From the NCBI GenBank assembly GCA_014654455.1, contig JACWCY010000003.1, positions 27,279 through 91,278 of the forward strand: a DNA stretch of 64,000 nucleotides. The letters run 5' to 3'. This DNA comes from Pelagibacterales bacterium SAG-MED01. Lineage in GTDB: Bacteria; Pseudomonadota; Alphaproteobacteria; Pelagibacterales; Pelagibacteraceae. The notes below the pieces were generated by a model. That model was given only the letters and a program-made list of their open reading frames with translations, had not been told where the DNA came from and did no database searches. This document shows, piece by piece, positions 12,590-22,484 of this stretch (its first letter is position 1; every line of letters begins with the position of its first letter). Position numbers and translations under genes: made by a program.

Positions 12590-13495
12590 ATGATCGAATT
12601 GAAAAATGAAAAAATTGCAATCCCAGTAGTTTTGTTTGCGGGCCTTCTCTGGTCTTTTGGTCCACTAGTTGTGAGATACATGGATAATCCACATATGGTG
12701 CCATGGCAATATATCTTTGGTCGAGGATTAACAATATTTATACTTTTAAATCTATATTTATATTTTGAAGAGGGAGTGAATTTTTACAAAAATTATAAAA
12801 AAATAGGTAGATCTGGAATAATAGGAGGTTGTGGTCTTGGTATTGCTATGATTTCATTTATTTATTCTATTACAAATACTAGCGCAGCTATTACATTATT
12901 ATGTTTGGCTGCAATGCCATTTTTTACAGCTATTTTGGCTTATTTATTTTTAAAAGAAAAAATTTCACTAAATGTTTGGGTATCAATATTTTTAGCCACA
13001 ATTGGTATTATCATTATGGCTGCTGGTAACACTGAAAAAAATTCTTTCATAGGATTTCTTTTTGGAATTACATCTTCAATAGGATTTTCAGTATTTTCAG
13101 TAACTCTTAGATGGAGAAAAGAAACACCTAAATTCACAACAGTTGCAGTTGCAGGCCTATTCTGTTTTGTATTTGCTACTCTGATGATTTTAATTACACA
13201 ACAGTCTTTTTTTTCAACAAGTTATAATAGCTCTATGTTTTCATTGCATGGTACTCTAGTTTGTTTGGGGTTAATTTTATATTCAATTGGCTCAAAAGCT
13301 ATTCCAGCTGCTGAATTAACCTTGTTATCTTTGACAGAGGTTATTGGAGGAATTTTTTGGGTTTGGTTACCATTATTTGGAATTAACGAAATTCCATCAA
13401 CTTATACTATAATTGGTGGATTTTTTCTTTTTGTATCTCTAATTTACTATAGTCTCATTATGAGATGGAATAAGAGACATATTGCATTAAATTAA
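12590..13495 (+). CDS. DMT/EamA-family transporter
   Basis: About 10 hydrophobic segments; FLKEKIS and LSLTEVIGGIFWVWL EamA-like motifs. Confidence 0.85.
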   Translation: MIELKNEKIAIPVVLFAGLLWSFGPLVVRYMDNPHMVPWQYIFGRGLTIFILLNLYLYFEEGVNFYKNYKKIGRSGIIGGCGLGIAMISFIYSITNTSAAITLLCLAAMPFFTAILAYLFLKEKISLNVWVSIFLATIGIIIMAAGNTEKNSFIGFLFGITSSIGFSVFSVTLRWRKETPKFTTVAVAGLFCFVFATLMILITQQSFFSTSYNSSMFSLHGTLVCLGLILYSIGSKAIPAAELTLLSLTEVIGGIFWVWLPLFGINEIPSTYTIIGGFFLFVSLIYYSLIMRWNKRHIALN

Positions 13496-13505
13496 AGTTA
13501 AATCT

Positions 13506-14717
13506 ATGGAACGACCAGATTTTTTTACACTTAAAAATGGTGAAAAAGCAAAACTTCCTTTTTCAAATAAGGAATATAATCAGAGATTAAATAAATTAAG
13601 AGACTCAATGGATAGAAATAATCTCGATATGGTTATTTTAACTTCATTGCATAATGTAGCGTATTATACAGGTTTTATATATTGTTCTTTTGGTCGACCA
13701 TATGCTTGCATTGTAACTAAAAATAAAATTTCAACTATTTCTGCTAATATTGATGCTAGCCAACCTTGGAGAAGATCTCATTGTGATAATGTTATTTATA
13801 CAGATTGGAAAAGAGATAATTTTTTAAAAGCAATTGTTTCTATTATTGGAAGAGATGAACCTCCTAAAAATATAGGATTAGAAAATGATCATATTACTTT
13901 AGATATGAAAGAAAAAATTGGTTCTATTTTTAATTTTTCTATTTTTACTGATATTTCAAAAGATTTAATGAAACTTCGAATGATAAAATCAAAAGAAGAA
14001 ATAGAAATTATTAAAAATGGTGCAAGAATTGCTGATTTAGGAGGAGAAGAAATTGTAAAAAATATCAAAGCAGGTGCAACAGAATTAGAAATAGCTATTG
14101 CTGGAAGAGATAGAATGGAAAGAGAAATAGCAAAAACTTATCCTGATGCAGAATATATGGATACATGGGTTTGGTTTCAGTCAGGAATTAATACTGATGG
14201 TGCACATAATCCAAAAACAAATCGTAAATTAGTTAAAGGTGATATTTTATCATTAAATACTTTTCCGATGATTTCAGGATACTATACTGCTTTGGAAAGA
14301 ACTCTTTTTTTGGAGACGGTTGATGACAATTCTTTAAAGGCTTGGGAAGCAAATGTAAAAGTTCACAAAAGAGGATTAGAGCTTATTAAACCAGGAGTTA
14401 AGTGTTCAGATATTTGCAATGAATTAAATGAACTTTTTGCTGAACTTGGATATTTACAATATAGAACTTTTGGGTACGGACATTCATTTGGAGTGCTATC
14501 TCATTTTTATGGTAGAGAGGCTGGTTTAGAATTAAGAGAAGATATTGATACAATACTTGAAGAAAACATGGTTGTATCAATGGAGCCAATGATTTTAATT
14601 CCAGAAGGAAAATCAGGAGCTGGAGGGTATCGTGAACATGATATTCTCGTAATTGGAGACAAAGGTGCAGAAAATATAAGTAAATTTCCTTTTGGGCCAG
14701 AGCATAATATTATTTAA
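13506..14717 (+). CDS. Creatinase (creatine amidinohydrolase, M24 fold)
   Basis: Creatinase-specific motifs CSFGRPY, QPWRRS, YTDWKRDN, WFQSGINTDGAHNP, YYTALERT, GYGHSFGVLSHFYGRE, GAGGYREHDIL, FPFGPEHNII. Confidence 0.9.
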   Translation: MERPDFFTLKNGEKAKLPFSNKEYNQRLNKLRDSMDRNNLDMVILTSLHNVAYYTGFIYCSFGRPYACIVTKNKISTISANIDASQPWRRSHCDNVIYTDWKRDNFLKAIVSIIGRDEPPKNIGLENDHITLDMKEKIGSIFNFSIFTDISKDLMKLRMIKSKEEIEIIKNGARIADLGGEEIVKNIKAGATELEIAIAGRDRMEREIAKTYPDAEYMDTWVWFQSGINTDGAHNPKTNRKLVKGDILSLNTFPMISGYYTALERTLFLETVDDNSLKAWEANVKVHKRGLELIKPGVKCSDICNELNELFAELGYLQYRTFGYGHSFGVLSHFYGREAGLELREDIDTILEENMVVSMEPMILIPEGKSGAGGYREHDILVIGDKGAENISKFPFGPEHNII

Positions 14718-14724
14718 GGTTTAA

Positions 14725-15840
14725 ATGAAAAAAAATAAAATGATAGTTAATAGTTGGAATGAATGGGATCCTCTTAAACATGTTATAGTTGGAAGAGCAG
14801 ATGGCACATGTATACCTGCACCAGAACCAGCTCTCGATGCCAAGGTACCTGAAGACTCTGATATGAGAGGTAAATTTGGTCCAAGAACAAAAGATGCTGT
14901 AGATAAAGCTAATCAATTATTAGATGATTTTTCTAAAATGTTAGAAAGACGTGGAATTAAAGTAGATAGACCTTTACCGATAGATTTTAACCAAAAAACA
15001 TCTACTCCAGATTGGGACTCAGAAACCATGTTTGGCTGTATGCCTCCAAGGGATGTTTTACTTACAGTAGGAAATGAAATTTTAGAAGCTACAATGAGTT
15101 ATAGATGTAGATGGTTTGAATATCTTTGCTACAGACCTCTTTTAAAAGAATATTATAACTCAGATCCAAATATGAAGCATGAGGCTGCTCCAAAACCTAG
15201 ATTAACAGATGCTGATTATCGTAAAGATTATTTGTCAGATCAAATTGGTATTCAAAAAAGATTGCAATGGACTGAAGATAAATTTTTTGTAACTACAGAA
15301 GAAGAGCCTTTGTTTGATGCTGCCGATGTTTTAAGATTTGGTAAAGACCTAGTTGTTCAACACGGCTTTACAACAAATTTAAAAGGTATCGACTGGCTTA
15401 AGAGACATTACAAAGATCACAGAGTTCATACTGTAAATTTTCCTGGTGATCCTTACCCAATTCATATTGATGCAACTTTTACACCTATTAGAGAAGGTTT
15501 AATCATAAATAATCCTCAAAGAAAATTGCCAAATGAGCAGAGAAAATTATTTGAAAAAAATGGCTGGGAAATAATTGATGCTGCACAACCGGCTCATAAC
15601 GAGCCTCCACCACTGTGTTATTCATCTGTTTGGCTTTCCATGAATGTTTTAGTGCTTGATCCTAAAACAGTGTGTGTTGAGAAAAGTGAAAAATATCAAG
15701 CAGAACAATTAGATAAACTAGGAATGGAAGTAATTCCTGTAGAGTTGAGAGATGCATATGCTTTTGGAGGTGGTTTGCATTGTTGTACTGCTGACGTTTA
15801 TAGAGAAGGTGAATTAAAAGATTACTTTCCTAAGCAATAA
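14725..15840 (+). CDS. Amidinotransferase, L-arginine:glycine amidinotransferase (AGAT/GATM)-like
   Basis: NEWDPL..VIVGRA, PPRD, catalytic FDAAD / HID / GGGLHC, and SSxWLSMN. Confidence 0.88.
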   Translation: MKKNKMIVNSWNEWDPLKHVIVGRADGTCIPAPEPALDAKVPEDSDMRGKFGPRTKDAVDKANQLLDDFSKMLERRGIKVDRPLPIDFNQKTSTPDWDSETMFGCMPPRDVLLTVGNEILEATMSYRCRWFEYLCYRPLLKEYYNSDPNMKHEAAPKPRLTDADYRKDYLSDQIGIQKRLQWTEDKFFVTTEEEPLFDAADVLRFGKDLVVQHGFTTNLKGIDWLKRHYKDHRVHTVNFPGDPYPIHIDATFTPIREGLIINNPQRKLPNEQRKLFEKNGWEIIDAAQPAHNEPPPLCYSSVWLSMNVLVLDPKTVCVEKSEKYQAEQLDKLGMEVIPVELRDAYAFGGGLHCCTADVYREGELKDYFPKQ

Positions 15841-15845
15841 TTTAT

Positions 15846-16073
15846 TTAGCTTGGGTTTTGTTTTAAAAATTCAATATATTCTAAGACAATATTATATTTT
15901 TCATCAGGTATATCTTTGTAACTAGCATTAAATTTTTCTCTGACACACAACGCAACATGTGCGTAAGGATTACGGCCTTTGGGATGATTTGGATGTTCAG
16001 GTAGCTGACCTGCCAAATAATCGCCAGCTTCCTGAATAATTTTCCATAGTTTACCTGCATTTTCTTTATTCAT
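15846..16073 (-). CDS. Small conserved-looking hypothetical protein (75 aa); C-terminus resembles the ORF6C domain
   Basis: Non-low-complexity ORF; start overlaps the upstream stop at 16073; contains HPNHPKGRNPYAH. Confidence 0.6.
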   Translation of the reverse strand: MNKENAGKLWKIIQEAGDYLAGQLPEHPNHPKGRNPYAHVALCVREKFNASYKDIPDEKYNIVLEYIEFLKQNPS

Positions 16074-16900
16074 TAATAAGATCCTTTTTTTGATGATCCT
16101 TTATAAAAAATATCTTGAAGATTATGATTTTCTCTCTTTTTTATTTTTAAATCATTTTCATTAAGTAAAGATTTAGGTCTTCCAATTTTTTCATGAAAAT
16201 CAAATTCATCAACACCTCTTGCTAATTGAACACTATTTTTACCTAAAATTTGCTTAACATTAGTTCCAATATAACTTTGAATTACAAAACCTATTCTTCG
16301 ATCATTACTTTTGTTTAAATCTGAACCGTGGACTACAGTAGGGTGATGAAGAGACATTTGCCCTGCATTTAAAATTAATGGTGTAGTTTTTTCTTTTGGT
16401 ACATTTTTGACAGTTTGACCCCTAGTTAATAAATTACCTTCATTAAACTTTTGATCATGTTCTTTAAGATTATCTTTATGTGACCCTGACCACATTCTCA
16501 TGCATCCATTTTTTTCATTGGAATCAGTTATAGCAACCCAAGCAGTTACCCAGTTATGTGGCTCTAAACCTATATACTTTGCATCTTGGTGATAGCTAAC
16601 AAATCCTTTTTCATTTGGATTTTTAATAAACAAAGTAGTTCCGCAAACAAGTATATTTTTACCAATTAAACTTTCAACAGCATCTAAAATTTTTGAATTA
16701 TGTGTTACTTCATCTAGTAAAGGTGAGATTAAATGAGCATTATATCTTCCAGATTTTTCTAATTCATCAGGAATTCTACTTTCAATCAATTCAATTTCAT
16801 TTCTTATTTTTTTTGTTTTTGCATCAGAGAAAATGTTTATTGGAGAAACAAATCCCTCATCCTCATACTGTTTGAGTTGATTTGAAGAAAGATAAGACAT
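16073..16900 (-). CDS. Fe(II)/2-oxoglutarate dioxygenase, PhyH family
   Basis: HQD...VHGS facial triad, NGCM..GSH and a terminal RR motif. Confidence 0.88.
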   Translation of the reverse strand: MSYLSSNQLKQYEDEGFVSPINIFSDAKTKKIRNEIELIESRIPDELEKSGRYNAHLISPLLDEVTHNSKILDAVESLIGKNILVCGTTLFIKNPNEKGFVSYHQDAKYIGLEPHNWVTAWVAITDSNEKNGCMRMWSGSHKDNLKEHDQKFNEGNLLTRGQTVKNVPKEKTTPLILNAGQMSLHHPTVVHGSDLNKSNDRRIGFVIQSYIGTNVKQILGKNSVQLARGVDEFDFHEKIGRPKSLLNENDLKIKKRENHNLQDIFYKGSSKKGSY

Positions 16901-16916
16901 AATATTAAAATATTAT
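16899..16916. promoter_or_regulatory. Palindromic 16-bp head-to-head spacer (ATAATATT-AA-AATATTAT); probable bidirectional leaderless promoter
   Basis: 8-bp inverted repeat spans the gap between divergent ATGs at 16900 and 16917; TAAAAT at 16906-16911. Confidence 0.4.
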
Positions 16917-17702
16917 ATGAGCATATCTATTTCTTCAATAAATTATTGCCCAGTCAAATCTATTTCTTTTCAAACTATTAAAAGTTGTGAAATTAGAAAA
17001 AATATTGGAATAATTGGAGACAGAATTTTTGCATTTTCCAAAGGATTAGATTTAAATCAATCACAGTTATTTGAAAAAAAGATTGAAGAGAGGAGAGGAA
17101 AATGGAACAAACTTCTTACTCTTAAAAACTCACCTTCTTTAAACAAATATAATTTTTTGTTTGGTAATGATAAATTAACGCTTGTTCAAAATAATAATGA
17201 AATTTTAACAATAAATAGTAATAAAACTGATGAATATGGATTGCTTTCAAACAAAATTCTAGAATTAGAAAACTCTTTTCAACAACCTTTGTTTTTGATG
17301 AAAAATAAAGATATTCCTTTTTTTGATACATCTATATCAAATAAGACACTTTTAACTCATTCAATATCTCTCATAAACATTAAAAGTATTGAGGATTTTA
17401 AAAATAAAACTAACCAAGAAATTGAGACCCAAAGATTTAGGGGCAATCTATATGTTGATGGAGTTGATGCTTGGGAAGAAAGAAATTGGATTGGAAATAT
17501 TATTAAGATAAACAATATTTCATTCAAAGTTGAAAAAAATATACCAAGATGTGTGGCAATCAACTTAAAACCAAATACTGATGATAATAGTTTGAATTTA
17601 CTTCAATCTTTAAAAAAAAATTATAATCATTTTGATATGGGAGTTTATTTAACAGCATTAGACGATGGATTAATTAATATCGGTGATAATATTTCATTAT
17701 AA
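16917..17702 (+). CDS. MOSC-domain protein (MOSC N-terminal beta-barrel plus MOSC)
   Basis: YCPVKS, GDRIFA, RFRGNLYVDG..AWEE, PRCVAIN (Moco-ligating Cys), MGVY. Confidence 0.85.
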   Translation: MSISISSINYCPVKSISFQTIKSCEIRKNIGIIGDRIFAFSKGLDLNQSQLFEKKIEERRGKWNKLLTLKNSPSLNKYNFLFGNDKLTLVQNNNEILTINSNKTDEYGLLSNKILELENSFQQPLFLMKNKDIPFFDTSISNKTLLTHSISLINIKSIEDFKNKTNQEIETQRFRGNLYVDGVDAWEERNWIGNIIKINNISFKVEKNIPRCVAINLKPNTDDNSLNLLQSLKKNYNHFDMGVYLTALDDGLINIGDNISL

Positions 17703-17799
17703 AATTTTATAATCAACTCCAGATTGAAATTTTTCAGCTATACTTTTTAAATCATTTTTGGTTTAATTATTTTTTTAATTAAAAAATAGGGGAGAATAA

Positions 17800-18645
17800 A
17801 TGAGTAAACTATTTAAATCGTTAACAGTTTTACTTGTGCTTCTTTTTTCAATTTCTTCTGTAAGCGCGAAAACTCTTACAGAAAGACTTGCAGATGGACA
17901 CAAACTAAGACTAGGTTTTGGAACGGCAGTGCCATGGGCTTACGCTGGAGACAGTGGTGAGGCTTTAGGTTTTGTAAACATGATAGCATTAACAGTGCTA
18001 GAGGAGATGGGCATTACCGAACATGAAACAAAAGTTTTTGAATGGTCAGGACTAATACCTGGATTAAATGCAGATCGTGCAGATATGATTACTGGTGGTA
18101 TGTACATTCTTAAAAGCAGGTGTGAAAACATGGACTTTTCAGATCCTATTGGTGTTTTTGGAGATGCAATGCTAGTTCCAAAAGGAAATCCAAAAAATAT
18201 TAACAATTATGCTGATGTTATTTCAACTGGTGCAAAATTAGTAACTGGTACTGGATTTAATACAGTAGAGGCTGCTAAAAAATATGGTGTACCGGATAGC
18301 CAAATGCTTTTAGTTGAAGGCGAAGTTGGAATTTTGGCTGCAATGAAAGCAGGAAGAGCCGACGTTGCTGTGCAAACATTCTTTGGTGCTAAAGAGCATG
18401 AGAAAAAAACTAATGGTAAATTTGAGGTGACTGATCCTAAATTGATGCCTAAAGAAACATTAAACGTTGTAGGTATTGGATTTAGAAAAGGTGATGACAA
18501 GTTTCGAGAAGCATTTAATGCTGCTCTAGCTAAAGTTATGGCTAACCCAGGAACTATGCTGAAAAGAGCTGGAGAGTATGGGTATGATAAAGCTCAACTT
18601 CCTCCACCAGATATGAGTACTGCTTGGGCTTGTTCAACTAAATAA
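17800..18645 (+). CDS. ABC transporter substrate-binding protein, EhuB (ectoine/hydroxyectoine)-like; ligand uncertain
   Basis: Signal peptide; LIPGL, RC..MDFSDP, LVPKGNPKNI, GFRKGD motifs; C-terminal Cys; GGGGAG RBS. Confidence 0.8.
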   Translation: MSKLFKSLTVLLVLLFSISSVSAKTLTERLADGHKLRLGFGTAVPWAYAGDSGEALGFVNMIALTVLEEMGITEHETKVFEWSGLIPGLNADRADMITGGMYILKSRCENMDFSDPIGVFGDAMLVPKGNPKNINNYADVISTGAKLVTGTGFNTVEAAKKYGVPDSQMLLVEGEVGILAAMKAGRADVAVQTFFGAKEHEKKTNGKFEVTDPKLMPKETLNVVGIGFRKGDDKFREAFNAALAKVMANPGTMLKRAGEYGYDKAQLPPPDMSTAWACSTK

Positions 18646-18665
18646 TATTTATATTAAATTTTAAT

Positions 18666-18699
18666 CAGGCGACTTTTATTAAGTCGCCTGGTTTTTTTT
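18666..18699 (+). terminator. Intrinsic terminator/stabilising hairpin after the SBP gene
   Basis: Perfect 10-bp stem CAGGCGACTT/AAGTCGCCTG with a 5-nt loop, followed by G and 8 T. Confidence 0.85.
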
Positions 18700-18713
18700 A
18701 TAAAGGTACGTAA

Positions 18714-19385
18714 GTGAGTTATATAGAATTTTTATCTGAACATGGGGCAACTTTGCTTTTAGGTACAGTTATGACACTAAAAGTTTTAGTTTGTTCTATT
18801 ATTTTGTATGTCATCATCTCGATGATATTTGGCTTGATGAGATTGTCTAAAAATTCAATTATTCAAGCCACAGCTACCATATATATAGAATTTTTTAGAG
18901 GAACTTCTTTATTAGTTCAATTATTTTGGGTTTACTACGTGCTTCCATTTTTTGGAATTTCTCTTGAGGCATTCACAGCTGGTGTAGTTGCACTCGGGTT
19001 AAATTTTGGTGCTTATGGAGCTGAAATAGTAAGAGGAGGTGTTTTGGCAGTACCCAAAGGTCAATGGGAAGCAGCATTTGCATTAAATTTTAGTCCTTCT
19101 AAGAGAATGAAGAATATAATTATCCCTCAAATTTTTCCAATCATTTTACCACCAGCTGCAAATTTAACTGTAGAACTTTTAAAAGCGACAGCATTAGTTG
19201 CACTAGTAACAGTTGTTGATTTAACTTTTGAAGCAAGACAAATAAATTCGATTACATGGTTATCGGTTCAATGTTTTGGAACAGCATTATTAATCTATTA
19301 TTTTATATCAAGATTTCTTTTAGTACCTTTTTTAAGATGGCTTGAGGTATTGGCTGCACGAAAAGTTGGAAAGGGTGGAGCTTAG
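18714..19385 (+). CDS. ehuC: Amino-acid ABC permease, EhuC-like (GTG start)
   Basis: FRGTSLLVQLFW and AYGAEIVRGG EAA loop. Confidence 0.75.
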   Translation: MSYIEFLSEHGATLLLGTVMTLKVLVCSIILYVIISMIFGLMRLSKNSIIQATATIYIEFFRGTSLLVQLFWVYYVLPFFGISLEAFTAGVVALGLNFGAYGAEIVRGGVLAVPKGQWEAAFALNFSPSKRMKNIIIPQIFPIILPPAANLTVELLKATALVALVTVVDLTFEARQINSITWLSVQCFGTALLIYYFISRFLLVPFLRWLEVLAARKVGKGGA

Positions 19386-19388
19386 TTT

Positions 19389-20066
19389 ATGGAAATGGGA
19401 TGGCGATGGGATTTTGCCTATGAAATTTTACCTCAAATGTTATTAGCAACTTTTAATACTATAGTTGCAGCTGGAGTAGGGTATACAATCGCTTTGGTGG
19501 TAGGCTTATTTTTTTTATTAGGTCAAAGAACTCCGTCAAAAATAATTAATGTGATTAATAGAGAAATAGTTGAGTTTGTGAGATCTACTCCACTTTTAAT
19601 ACAACTATTTTTCGTATACTTTGTGCTTCCTCAATTTGGTATTACTTTATCAGCTTGGGTTTGTGGAATGATTACAATTGGACTACACTTTGGGACTTAT
19701 CTTTCTGAGGTTTATAGAGGAGCATTGGAGGGTGTATCAAAAACTCAATGGGAAGCTTGTAGAGCCTTGAACTTTTCAACAATTTATACTTATCGTAGAA
19801 TTGTTTTACCTCAAGCATTTCCGATCGCAATACCAGGTATGGGAAATTACTTAGTAGGTATTTTTAAAGACACTCCATTACTTTCAACTATTGGTGTAGC
19901 AGAATTATTTCATGCAGCAACTGCAGTTGGAGGGTATAATTATAGATATTTAGAACCATATACAATGGTTGGTATAATTTTTTTAATTCTTTCAGTTCCT
20001 GCAGCAATGGGTATAAGAAAATTAGAAAAAAAAGTTAATTCAGCACAAGGAAAAATTAATCAATAA
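19389..20066 (+). CDS. ehuD: Amino-acid ABC permease, EhuD-like
   Basis: WRWDFAYEILP, RSTPLLIQL, YLSEVYRG, FKDTPLLS, YRYLEP. Confidence 0.8.
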   Translation: MEMGWRWDFAYEILPQMLLATFNTIVAAGVGYTIALVVGLFFLLGQRTPSKIINVINREIVEFVRSTPLLIQLFFVYFVLPQFGITLSAWVCGMITIGLHFGTYLSEVYRGALEGVSKTQWEACRALNFSTIYTYRRIVLPQAFPIAIPGMGNYLVGIFKDTPLLSTIGVAELFHAATAVGGYNYRYLEPYTMVGIIFLILSVPAAMGIRKLEKKVNSAQGKINQ

Positions 20067-20857
20067 TGAAAACTAAAAACGATAAAGAAATTATAGTAAA
20101 ATTTTCAGATGTAACTAAACAATATAGCGATTTAGTAGTTTTAGATAAATTAAACTTAGAAATAAAAAAAAATGAGATGGTTTCAATTATTGGACCATCG
20201 GGATCTGGCAAAACTACAGTTCTTAGAGTTCTTATGACTCTAGAAAAAATTAATCAAGGAATAATTCACCTTGATGGAGAACCACTAACACATATGAAAG
20301 AAGGAGAAAAACTCATTCCTGCAAGTGAAAAATATCTTCGAGAAAAACGTTCAAAAATAGGAATGGTTTTTCAACAATTTAATTTATTCCCCCATATGAC
20401 TGCTTTACAAAATTGTATTGAGGCACCTATTGAAGTGCTTGGTATGAAAAAAGAAGAAGCAGAAGCAAGAGCTCTAGAGTTATTAGAACTAGTAGGTTTG
20501 ACTGATAAAAAAAATGAACATCCTTCAAGACTTTCTGGTGGACAACAACAAAGAGTAGCTATAGCAAGAGCTCTTGCAATGAGACCTAAGGTAATGCTCT
20601 TAGATGAAATAACATCTGCATTAGACCCTGAAGTTGTTGGAGAAGTTTTAAATGTAATTAGATCTTTAAATAAAGAGCATAATTTAACAATGATAATGGT
20701 TACTCATCAAATGGGATTTGCTAGAGAAATTTCAGATAGGGTGTGTTTTTTTAATGAAGGAAAAATTTATGAGCAGGGGCCACCAGAACAATTATTTGGA
20801 GATCCACAGAACGAGAGAACTAAGCAATTTTTACACGCTGTTCTGGACGCTAATTAG
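20066..20857 (+). CDS. ehuA: ABC ATP-binding protein, EhuA-like
   Basis: GPSGSGKT, VLRVLMTLE, LSGGQQQRV, LLDE. Confidence 0.85.
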   Translation: MKTKNDKEIIVKFSDVTKQYSDLVVLDKLNLEIKKNEMVSIIGPSGSGKTTVLRVLMTLEKINQGIIHLDGEPLTHMKEGEKLIPASEKYLREKRSKIGMVFQQFNLFPHMTALQNCIEAPIEVLGMKKEEAEARALELLELVGLTDKKNEHPSRLSGGQQQRVAIARALAMRPKVMLLDEITSALDPEVVGEVLNVIRSLNKEHNLTMIMVTHQMGFAREISDRVCFFNEGKIYEQGPPEQLFGDPQNERTKQFLHAVLDAN

Positions 20858-20864
20858 TTTGAAT

Positions 20865-21674
20865 TTAATTTTTTTTTCTTTGATCTATTTCAAAAGCATC
20901 TAATTTTGAAAATAATTCATCTTGAAGAGATGTATCGTGTTCTTCAGCTATTGCTTTTTTTAATTGCTCTCGTCTTTTAAGTCTTTCTTCTTTAAAAATT
21001 TCTTCTTGTAATTTTACTTTTTGGTCCTCGTCAAACTTCTTTTCCCATTCTCTTATTCTTTGAGCTTCTTTATCTTTTTGTATAGCTTCTTCATCTTCTT
21101 TTAATTTTTGTTCTTTTTGTTTTTTTCTAAATTCTTTTAAATCTTTTTTCTTTTGATCTTCTTCTCTAACTTTTAAATCAATATCTCTTTTTTCTTGTAC
21201 TTCGTGAGTAACTTTTAAATCAGATTCTTTCTTTTTTAAATCTTTGTCTAACTTTTTAAGATCTTCTTCTTTTCTTTTTAAGTCAATCTCTTTAATTTCA
21301 AGTTGTTTATCTTTTAACTTAAGATTTTCTTCAATACTAAATTGTTCTCTCTCTTTATTTTTTTGATCTTTTTCTTTTAAGCGTAAATCATCGTCTTTTT
21401 GAATTAATTGTAGATCTTTTTTTCTTAAATGTTCATCCTTTTTTTTTATTTGATCTTCTCTTTTTTTAAATTCTTCATCTCTAATCTTTAAATCTTTTTC
21501 TTTAGATATAATTTTAATTTGTTCTTTTTTTATTAATTCTTCTTTCAGCTTAATTTCTTTTTTTTCATTAATTTTTTGTTTTTTTTTAAAATCATCAAAA
21601 ACTTTATTTAATATAAGACTAATTTTCTTAGTTTTTTTTGGCTGTTTTTTCAGTGATGCTTTTTTTTTAGTCAT
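20865..21674 (-). CDS. Lys/Glu-rich heptad-repeat coiled-coil protein of unknown function
   Basis: Long open frame with about 17 consecutive heptads. Start set at ATG 21674; the ORF track uses TTG 21698. Confidence 0.65.
   Translation of the reverse strand: MTKKKASLKKQPKKTKKISLILNKVFDDFKKKQKINEKKEIKLKEELIKKEQIKIISKEKDLKIRDEEFKKREDQIKKKDEHLRKKDLQLIQKDDDLRLKEKDQKNKEREQFSIEENLKLKDKQLEIKEIDLKRKEEDLKKLDKDLKKKESDLKVTHEVQEKRDIDLKVREEDQKKKDLKEFRKKQKEQKLKEDEEAIQKDKEAQRIREWEKKFDEDQKVKLQEEIFKEERLKRREQLKKAIAEEHDTSLQDELFSKLDAFEIDQRKKN
21172..21284 (-). repeat. Degenerate 21-bp tandem repeat encoding xxxxDLK heptads
   Basis: TTTAAATC/TTTAAGTC-like units on + near 21172, 21214, 21235, 21256 and 21277 (spacings of 42 or 21 bp). 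Confidence 0.65.
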
Positions 21675-21848
21675 TTTTTTTTGATTATATTTCAACAAAG
21701 TTTTGTTAATAATTCAACATTTCCTTTTTAATAATTGAAAGATTGGTGACTAATTTGAGTTTCAACCTATGAGTGATTATTTGGAATAAAATTATTATAA
21801 ATCAATATTTTTTTTGCATTCAATAATTCAAATCATTATTAAAGTTTT

Positions 21849-22484
21849 ATGAAAAAATTTAAAAAATTAATAATTGCTTGTGATGGTGAGTCTGCAAGTG
21901 GCAAAAGTACTGCAGCAAAACTAATTTCAAAAAAATATAATTTATTGTTAATAAACTCAGGGTTATTATATAGGTATAGTAGTAAGTTAATAATAAAAAA
22001 TAATCCAAAAAATATTACTCAATTCCTTAAAAAAAAATTTAAAAATATATCTTACAGAAATATATCTAAGCAAAATTTACACTCAGAAGAAATAAGTAAT
22101 CATGTTGCATTTCTAGCTAAAAATAAAAAAGTAAGAAAGATAATCAATCAATTTCAATTAAAAATTATTAAATCTAATAAAAAAATTTGCGTTGAAGGAA
22201 GAGATATAGCCAGTAAAATTTTAGCTAAAAATCCTAAGTATGATTTAGCATTTTATTTTAAATGCAATCTAAATGTAGCTAGTTATAGAAGGTGGCTAGA
22301 TATTAAAAAGAAAGTTTCTTTAACAAATGTCAAAAAATCTCTTAATAAAAGAACACAAATGGATAAAAAAAGAAAAAATAGTCCTTTAATAAAAGTTAAG
22401 GATGCTATTTTAATTAGATCAGACAAATTAACTAAAAACCAAGTTTTATCTAAAATGTCTAAATATATAGAGAGATTAAATTAA
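21849..22484 (+). CDS. cmk: Cytidylate kinase
   Basis: IACDGESASGKST P-loop, INSGLLYR, VEGRDI. Confidence 0.85.
   Translation: MKKFKKLIIACDGESASGKSTAAKLISKKYNLLLINSGLLYRYSSKLIIKNNPKNITQFLKKKFKNISYRNISKQNLHSEEISNHVAFLAKNKKVRKIINQFQLKIIKSNKKICVEGRDIASKILAKNPKYDLAFYFKCNLNVASYRRWLDIKKKVSLTNVKKSLNKRTQMDKKRKNSPLIKVKDAILIRSDKLTKNQVLSKMSKYIERLN

Follow-up and report, generated by a model that had tools for sequence, protein, structure and literature searches.

A SAR11 transporter of the ectoine (Ehu) type has lost a presumed ligand-contacting glutamate and may import a different zwitterion

The closest described relative of the system that I will discuss here is the ectoine transporter EhuABCD of Sinorhizobium meliloti, whose binding protein EhuB is represented in the PDB by entries 2Q88 and 2Q89. 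The system itself is a four-gene ATP-binding cassette (ABC) transporter of the same type, encoded at positions 17800 to 20857 of a 64,000-nucleotide stretch (the window) of Pelagibacterales bacterium SAG-MED01 (contig JACWCY010000003.1), and its periplasmic solute-binding protein (SBP) carries an alanine in the place of an EhuB glutamate. EhuB is taken here to contact its ligand through Glu21, Phe24, Tyr60, Phe80, Arg85 and Thr133, a list that reportedly goes back to Hanekop et al. 2007, and I likewise take position 43 of the SBP to be equivalent to Glu21 of EhuB and to Asp11 of LAO/HisJ, the acid that meets the cationic N-H of the ligand, with the spacing D11-x-x-Y14 presumably matching E21-x-x-F24. 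SAR11 is the most abundant bacterial group of the surface ocean, and its binding proteins set which dissolved compounds it removes. Reviews give Kd values of EhuB for ectoine and hydroxyectoine together with the PDB codes, and the label "ectoine/hydroxyectoine transporter" has been taken at face value in discussions of SAR11 osmolyte use and of the marine-freshwater transition (PMC6018831, PMC10030771). Thirteen binding proteins of the SAR11 strain HTCC1062 have been characterised (PMC11485210), and the SBP has no orthologue among them. A literature search returned no experimental characterisation of the SBP, no link between hydroxyectoine and a molybdoenzyme, and no reductase or transporter for dimethylsulfoxonium propionate (DMSOP).

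The window, at about 27% G+C, belongs to a SAR11/Pelagibacter genome, and the four transporter genes form one co-directional unit (Pfam PF00497, PF00528 twice and PF00005) with the domain set and operon layout of the polar amino acid ABC importer family (TC 3.A.1.3: SBP_bac_3, two BPD_transp_1 and ABC_tran). An earlier reading made from the sequence only had described a complete ehuBCDA-like set, and all four genes are indeed present, with the two permeases and the ATPase passing the NCBIfam cut-offs for their Ehu families and the binding protein failing its own:

17800 to 18645, plus strand: periplasmic SBP of 281 residues, Ehu-like, Pfam PF00497
17923 to 17937, plus strand: codons of T42-A43-V44-P45-W46 of the SBP, the counterpart of N-E21-P-P-F24 of EhuB in the HMMER alignment
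18663 to 18693, plus strand: GC-rich 13-bp hairpin followed by a T-run, between the SBP gene and the first permease gene
18714 to 19385, plus strand: EhuC-type permease, TIGR03004 at 226.8 bits against a cut-off of 196.95
19389 to 20066, plus strand: EhuD-type permease, TIGR03003 at 260.3 bits against a cut-off of 205.2
20066 to 20857, plus strand: EhuA-type ATPase, TIGR03005 at 401.8 bits against a cut-off of 345.4

Permease and ATPase parts of these types do not set specificity. The binding protein, with a signal peptide read by eye at about residues 1 to 23 (VSA|K), reaches 160.6 bits on the EhuB model TIGR02995, below the NCBIfam cut-off of 190.9, and yet EhuB (2Q88) is its first phmmer match in the PDB. 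The alignment between the two is gap-free over SBP residues 30 to 132 and chain residues 9 to 111, i.e. the first lobe, where T42-A43-V44-P45-W46 faces N-E-P-P-F (Glu21 to Ala43, Phe24 to Trp46), FEWS faces SEYG (Tyr60 to Trp82) and GMYILKSRC faces GLFMKPERC (Phe80 to Tyr102, with Arg85 kept as Arg107); Thr133-Glu134 of EhuB is replaced by Asn154-Thr155. The sequence-only reading had paired the same three motifs by eye, proposing a W/W/Y cage, a retained arginine and a glutamate turned into alanine, and each of these assignments holds in the HMMER alignment, which could have restored an acid at the Glu21 position and instead places Ala43 there. The aromatic cage (Trp46, Trp82, Tyr102) and the carboxylate-binding Arg107 thus stand at the aligned EhuB positions. 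The structural comparison with EhuB that had been proposed as a check agrees: the AlphaFold model (pLDDT 93.6) has the two-lobed periplasmic fold also seen in LAO/HisJ, and its best PDB match is EhuB with ectoine (2Q88; TM scores 0.80/0.86, rmsd 2.4 Å, 27% identity). Nearly all members of the wider Ehu-like clade, if not all, share two cysteines, C108 in the motif SRC and C278 in W-A-C, which probably form a disulfide that ties the C-terminal tail to lobe 1.

This substitution is not peculiar to one genome. An exhaustive HMMER search over 1.8 billion representatives placed the SBP in an isolated SAR11-type cluster, with one representative at 66% identity and all further relatives at 40% or less, and in a tree of 113 family representatives together with the query and EhuB (115 rows) the query falls in a well-supported clade marked by W82, Y102 and R107, apart from the branch that holds S. 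meliloti EhuB. Glutamate occupies position 43 in 76 of these 115 rows, and it is present in all 66 Glu-type sequences of a 102-row alignment. The orthologues at 66-69% identity come from Rhodobacterales (Actibacterium, Boseongicola, Pseudophaeobacter), Pelagibius, one Rhizobiales metagenome-assembled genome (MAG) and others, and all 121 orthologues keep W82, Y102 and R107 and carry alanine, serine or valine at position 43; the motif reads T-A-[IV]-P-W in 115 of them and T-S/V-I-P-W or T-A-I-P-F in the remainder. Six orthologues, including the window SBP, score 152-163 bits on TIGR02995 (the other five 152.6-162.6) compared with 185.8-216.7 for Glu-bearing relatives of the same clade, so that the orthologous group lies about 30 bits under the latter. 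Besides Ala43, the columns specific to the group are N42T, Y153F, P175E, G190A, Q192, T196G, N199E and L200H. Judged from these alignments, the change from Glu21 to alanine is a fixed trait of the orthologous group and not drift. An argument from a gain of hydrogen-bond donors was dropped, because the W/W/Y cage and the G-x-N-T motif also occur in Glu-type relatives. As a separate observation, an acid (Asp or Glu) stands at position 196 in 37% of the relatives that lack an acid at position 43 (the query group excluded) and in 3% of those that have one, these counts ignoring kinship; the query group itself has glycine or serine there. The pattern hints that in some lineages lacking the acid at 43 the ligand-binding acid may have moved to domain 2.

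At least 80 SAR11 species-level genomes carry the SBP, HIMB1485, HIMB1493 and HIMB1746 are cultured carriers, and metagenome clusters of it reach up to 2,533 members. The gene is also transcribed in situ, with contig depths of 300-880 in the marine metatranscriptomes X1 and X3 and of 76-238 in X2, compared with at most 17 for the permease genes in X1 and X3 (one X2 bin stands at 122). The 18663 to 18693 hairpin is the sole terminator-like site found in 15800 to 21900, and transcript depth is about 10-fold lower after it. A terminator-like hairpin right after an SBP gene is the usual arrangement for producing excess binding protein, and this one likely acts as a partial terminator that yields excess SBP mRNA.

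The genes around the transporter were compared in a scan of one genome per species, which gave 275 relatives, and the SAR11 counts below come from the best 80 of those 275, all Pelagibacteraceae; a metagenome scan yielded 19 contigs, mostly short. In the window, the neighbours that matter to the argument are the following:

12590 to 15840, upstream of the transporter: genes for an EamA transporter, a creatinase and an AGAT-like amidinotransferase, the last two on the strand of the transporter and 2-4 kb from it
16073 to 16900, minus strand: PhyH-family Fe(II)/2-oxoglutarate dioxygenase, Pfam PF05721 at 96.4 bits, best PDB match 6ZYK at 107 bits
16917 to 17702, plus strand: MOSC-domain protein, a candidate mARC/YcbX-like molybdenum reductase, Pfam PF03473 at 50.8 bits, directly upstream of the SBP gene

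The MOSC gene lies directly upstream of the SBP gene in all 75 SAR11 loci that reach that far, the other five of the 80 ending at the SBP start. Its product in the window carries a conserved cysteine of the Mo-ligand type in the motif IPRCVAINL, and its sequence contains the motif IPRCVAINLKPNT; by domain and cysteine it is a candidate for a MOSC/mARC-YcbX-type reductase, i.e. a predicted enzyme. One metatranscriptome contig covers the MOSC-SBP junction, and the MOSC gene reaches a depth of 15-143 in X2, with almost no coverage in X1 and X3. The PhyH gene, divergent from the MOSC gene across a 16-bp gap in the window, adjoins the cassette in 65 of the 80 loci in one of two layouts, divergent from MOSC or co-directional upstream of it. 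Its product was considered as an ectoine hydroxylase (EctD) and rejected, at 28.5 bits against an NCBIfam cut-off of 336.5. In 12 of the 80 loci (L001-L005, L007, L009, L015, L017 and similar ones) a run of genes for proteorhodopsin, a 2Fe-2S ferredoxin (about 112-122 residues), a TrxR-like flavin reductase (about 340 residues) and a GST precedes the cassette at roughly -4.5 to -1.7 kb from the SBP start, with the GST gene as immediate neighbour in 11. The ferredoxin and the TrxR-like, ferredoxin-reductase-like protein are plausible electron donors of the MOSC enzyme, and together the three look like a split electron chain of the YcbX/mARC type.

The upstream creatinase operon behaves differently, and the suggestion of the sequence-only reading that the transporter may feed it is not supported by this comparison. 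The window does hold a true creatinase (PDB 1CHM, E = 5e-157) and an AGAT-like enzyme that matches 1JDW (E = 5e-86). However, a creatinase lies within 10 kb of the cassette in only 15 of the 80 loci and an AGAT-like gene in 25, at distances that vary between 2 and 10 kb, and the flanks fall into at least three unrelated contexts (GFO-type oxidoreductases with MFS; GST with a 177-residue gene; a FadB-like gene with a 319-residue gene). In 22 loci the AGAT-like gene precedes the cassette in the same orientation, and in 6 of 72 it is the immediate neighbour of the cassette. In addition, a 76-77% identical copy on the opposite strand occurs in L063 and L064 (at -1025, minus strand), where it is divergent from MOSC in the usual place of PhyH, and in L031 (at -3348, minus strand), so that the juxtaposition of an amidinotransferase with the cassette arose there as an independent layout. 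With MOSC in 75 of 75 loci, PhyH in 65 of 80 and creatinase and AGAT only loosely linked, the conserved SAR11 unit is [PhyH]-MOSC-SBP-permease-permease-ATPase, and the creatinase operon is an occasional island neighbour. Among early isolates, Thompson et al. 2013 describe creatinase as core to SAR11 subgroup Ia and the SBP as found in HTCC7211 only (PMC3686209). G+C is 0.335-0.345 both at 18001 to 20000 (transporter) and at 14001 to 16000 (creatinase and AGAT genes), with flanks at 0.25-0.29. On the other side of the cassette, a Lys/Glu-rich coiled-coil open reading frame at 20865 to 21698 (minus strand) converges on the ATPase gene; it has a tblastn match in just one of the 80 related SAR11 loci (L026, 68%), and is either strain-specific or no conserved gene.

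Outside SAR11 the sample is small (eight distinct arrangements and six controls), and a molybdenum reductase lies within about 5 kb of the orthologous transporter in seven of the eight arrangements, the eighth (L100) ending 307 bp upstream. A BisC-family S/N-oxide reductase adjoins the transporter in L081, L082, L086/87, L088, L096 and L101, and a MOSC protein takes its place in the Boseongicola-type loci. The gene orders, followed by those of the controls, which carry other site types, are:

L081, L086/87 and L096: divergent AsnC regulator, SBP, two permeases, ATPase, a 490-residue cysteine-synthase-like PALP enzyme, then the BisC-family reductase; L086/87 adds a diaminopropionate-ammonia-lyase family enzyme and an M24 enzyme
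L082 and L101: upstream, the BisC-family reductase together with a diaminopropionate-lyase-like enzyme; in L101, M20 and M24 enzymes in addition
L088 (a low-GC single-cell genome): BisC-family reductase, two DoeA2-like M24 enzymes, an ArgE-like M20 enzyme, EutA-like and EutB-like proteins, an OCD-family gene and SSADH
L083 to L085 and L097 (Boseongicola type): MOSC protein in the place of BisC, with a distantly creatinase-like M24 enzyme
L100: true EutB and a fragment of EutC right after the ATPase
L111 (control, Glu type): canonical ehuBCDA-eutB-eutC-asnC-ssd-atf with divergent M24 and M20 genes
L089, L112 and L113 (controls, Glu type): M24, amidase and sarcosine-oxidase-like genes
L090 (control, Glu type): nothing informative nearby
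L091:7737-14479 (control): a second, independent Ala-type clade (N-A-A-P-W, Defluviicoccus-like), with an AsnC regulator, a Rieske oxygenase, a class-IV aminotransferase and a second Rieske protein

None of these six control loci holds a molybdoenzyme, a clear contrast for so small a sample. On TIGR00509, the three BisC-like proteins that were scanned reach 861-965 bits; the BisC-like proteins open with the THWG motif itself, lack a twin-arginine (Tat) signal and are therefore cytoplasmic. The presence of two unrelated molybdenum reductase families in one position suggests non-orthologous displacement. The remaining neighbour enzymes are DoeA2- or creatinase-like M24, DoeB2- or ArgE-like M20, EutA/B/C-like and diaminopropionate-ammonia-lyase family proteins, and most of the Eut- and Doe-like ones score under their equivalog cut-offs (in L088, 205 bits against 318 for the EutA-like and 374 against 413 for the EutB-like protein). 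The M24 enzymes are neither creatinase nor ectoine hydrolase; their best PDB match is either creatinase (99 bits) or DoeA (145 bits), and they are distant members of those non-peptidase branches.

Several of these loci deserve a remark in their own right. In Actibacterium pelagium, some 2 kb downstream of the BisC-like gene and behind a LysR regulator, a 123-residue EctC-like cupin (L081:18933-19304, Pfam Ectoine_synth) is encoded together with GFA and DUF1059 genes. At L100:2627-4399, a single open reading frame of 590 residues joins an EhuA-type ATPase in frame to the true EutB dehydratase, and the EutC frame matches the first half of its model only; the joined frame is either a real fusion or a product of assembly or frameshift errors in the MAG contig. 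The Rhizobium lusitanum control (L112:40-8867) sets a Glu-type Ehu-like transporter beside a 411-residue M24 enzyme, an amidase, soxBDAG-like genes and a DJ-1/AraC (GATR-type) regulator, and by gene content is a candidate locus for an N-methyl or amidino compound; it was also considered as proof that creatine-type Ehu-like binders keep the glutamate and was set aside, since its M24 enzyme is only 22% identical to creatinase.

Taken with the fixed alanine and the consistently lower EhuB score, neighbourhoods unlike the canonical ehu-eut cluster bear out the earlier suspicion that the SBP is unlikely to be an EhuB-type ectoine binder. A tblastn search of the 64-kb window with EutA, EutB, DoeA-like M24, M20, diaminopropionate-lyase-like, PALP and BisC queries, which covered neither ect genes nor the rest of the genome, found the creatinase only, in line with the earlier statement that the window has no doe or eut genes; eut and doe genes are likewise missing from the gene clusters that recur across the 80 SAR11 loci.

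What, then, does the transporter carry? The reading that I prefer, and hold tentatively, is that it imports a zwitterion that resembles ectoine or is of the amidine/guanidine type, and whose N-O or S-O group is reduced after uptake. The mobile accessory SAR11 cassette, [PhyH dioxygenase]-MOSC reductase-SBP-two permeases-ATPase, would encode a high-affinity importer of the polar-amino-acid (Ehu-like) family with a re-specified binding protein, one that may still hold a carboxylate with Arg107 inside the cage of Trp46, Trp82 and Tyr102 and would have lost the acid that hydrogen-bonds the N-H of the ectoine amidinium. With that acid lost, ectoine itself is most likely not the cargo; a related zwitterion is probable, one that lacks such an N-H donor at its positive or polar end or is only weakly basic there. 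The constant presence of a molybdenum-cofactor reductase next to the transporter makes an N-O or S-O function in the cargo most likely, with N-hydroxy-amidine, N-hydroxy-guanidine, N-oxide, sulfoxide and sulfoxonium groups as candidates. Outside SAR11, the neighbouring enzymes are related to those of ectoine catabolism at scores under the family cut-offs, the recurrent ones being relatives of amidine/guanidine hydrolases, of deacylases and of PLP-dependent eliminases, and the skeleton of the cargo may accordingly be of the amidine/guanidine type. BisC-family and mARC/YcbX MOSC enzymes reduce N-O or S-O bonds in small molecules, and N-hydroxy-amidines and N-hydroxy-guanidines are classical mARC substrates that are far less basic than their parents, a lower basicity that would fit the loss of the acid at position 43. 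Once taken up, the cargo would at once have its oxygenated group reduced in the cytoplasm, which would leave a product to be broken down by catabolism of the amidine/guanidine type or used as it is. A wider form of the proposal, in which SAR11 and roseobacters share such a route of import followed by reduction, is possible and rather more doubtful. In it, a dedicated mARC-like MOSC enzyme (SAR11) or BisC-like reductase (elsewhere) would turn the imported zwitterion into an osmolyte or nutrient; this zwitterion would be either an N-oxygenated amidine or guanidine, such as an N-hydroxy-amidino or N-hydroxy-guanidino acid, or an S-oxide or sulfoxonium compound, such as DMSOP-like solutes.

Several points weigh against the preferred reading. 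To my knowledge no natural N-oxygenated ectoine-like marine solute has been described, gene adjacency is no proof that the reductase acts on the cargo, the sample outside SAR11 is small, and the M24, M20 and PALP enzymes of other lineages are lacking at SAR11 loci. Furthermore, L088 has a full set of Eut-like genes, the EutB of L100 is a true one at 449.6 bits against the cut-off of 413, and the orthologous group has gained an invariant Glu175 and Glu199-His200 in domain 2, so the cargo could still be ectoine or hydroxyectoine bound in another way. On that account, which I consider unlikely yet the strongest of the alternatives, the W/W/Y cage and Arg107 would hold (hydroxy)ectoine, the Glu21 contact would be replaced (e.g. 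by Glu175 or Glu199) or dispensed with, and SAR11 would use the compound mainly as an osmolyte. That EhuB is the best match of the SBP in both fold and sequence, that the permeases and ATPase exceed the Ehu equivalog cut-offs, that L100 and L088 resemble hydroxyectoine catabolic clusters (the latter with its DoeA2-like M24, M20 and SSADH genes) and that a regulator of the AsnC type occurs, a feature shared with ectoine clusters, all speak for it. However, it must accommodate a glutamate so widely kept in the family and replaced throughout this one group, the 30-bit deficit, the mostly sub-cut-off Eut- and Doe-like neighbours, the lack of doe/eut homologues in the window, and an S/N-oxide reductase for which ectoine catabolism has no known role; and since family members commonly have an acid near position 177, Glu-type relatives among them, Glu175 is not clearly compensatory.

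Improbable, to a degree below that of (hydroxy)ectoine, is the import of a betaine whose nitrogen is fully methylated, or of a sulfonium compound (e.g. proline betaine, beta-alanine betaine, homarine, trigonelline or a solute of the dimethylsulfoniopropionate (DMSP) type), with the PhyH enzyme as demethylase or hydroxylase and the MOSC enzyme unrelated to the cargo. A cage with a carboxylate-binding arginine and without an acid is the pattern of betaine-binding proteins, betaine binding by an aromatic cage being established for ProX/OpuAC, and PhyH is the frequent SAR11 neighbour described above. The betaine part of the original list of ligands also finds an echo in the independent Ala-type clade of L091, which sits between an AsnC regulator and GbcA-like Rieske oxygenases (best family match GbcA, the glycine-betaine monooxygenase, at 149 bits, far under the cut-off of 670) and is a candidate betaine or N-methyl-amino-acid system. 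A betaine would nonetheless leave unexplained the MOSC/BisC-family reductases of nearly every lineage and the M24, M20 and PALP enzymes of lineages outside SAR11, and SAR11 is reported in the literature to have a multifunctional betaine/DMSP transporter already. Least probable of all is a guanidino acid such as creatine or guanidinoacetate imported for the EamA-creatinase-amidinotransferase operon, since, for all that a true creatinase and an AGAT-like enzyme lie upstream on the same strand, that AGAT-like genes adjoin the cassette in two independent layouts and that M24 enzymes elsewhere are creatinase- or DoeA-like, a residual link to amidino chemistry, the linkage within SAR11 is loose, other contexts have neither gene, the subgroup distributions of creatinase and SBP differ, orthologues outside SAR11 never stand beside a true creatinase, and guanidinium groups are normally held by carboxylates, so that the loss of the acid would run opposite to what their recognition needs.

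The distinction matters because the SBP is abundant and strongly transcribed in the ocean's dominant heterotroph. If its ligand is something other than ectoine, inferences about osmolyte use and salinity adaptation in SAR11 need revisiting, and if import followed by reduction is what happens, the SAR11 "ectoine transporter" is a misannotation; if the ligand is an oxidised nitrogen or sulfur compound reduced by the molybdoenzyme, this would reveal an unrecognised flux of dissolved organic matter and give MOSC/mARC-type enzymes a physiological role in bacteria.

Set against the known systems, the cassette combines familiar parts. With LAO/HisJ the SBP shares its fold (TM scores of about 0.7-0.85), and Ala43 stands where Asp11 binds the cationic side chain; unlike them, it has Thr193 in the phmmer alignment where they have Asp161 for the alpha-ammonium group, and would therefore be no standard alpha-amino-acid binder. 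The reductase beside the transporter resembles BisC or mARC/YcbX: it is either a Mo-bisMGD enzyme of the BisC family that has no Tat signal, or a MOSC protein in which the conserved cysteine is present. I know of no case in which either family is tied to a dedicated ABC importer. The Glu-type Ehu cluster L111, from the same W82 sub-clade, is alike in its SBP (45-50% identical, with W82, R107 and the G-x-N/S motif) and in its AsnC, M24, M20 and PALP partners; however, its motif is N-E-V-P-F, its SBP reaches 216.7 bits on the EhuB model and no molybdoenzyme accompanies it, whereas the query group has T-A-[IV]-P-W, remains below the cut-off and always comes with one. With S. meliloti EhuABCD, finally, the transporter shares the gene set and type of gene order (SBP, two permeases, ATPase), the Ehu scores of its permeases and ATPase, the fold of its binding protein, and the carboxylate-binding arginine and three-residue aromatic cage at the same positions, and it differs in the lost Glu21, the F/Y/F cage turned into W/W/Y, the Asn154-Thr155 pair, the low EhuB score, the lack of eut and doe genes nearby, and a MOSC reductase and PhyH dioxygenase as fixed neighbours. 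It is a variant within the known Ehu-like kind of transporter and not a new kind.

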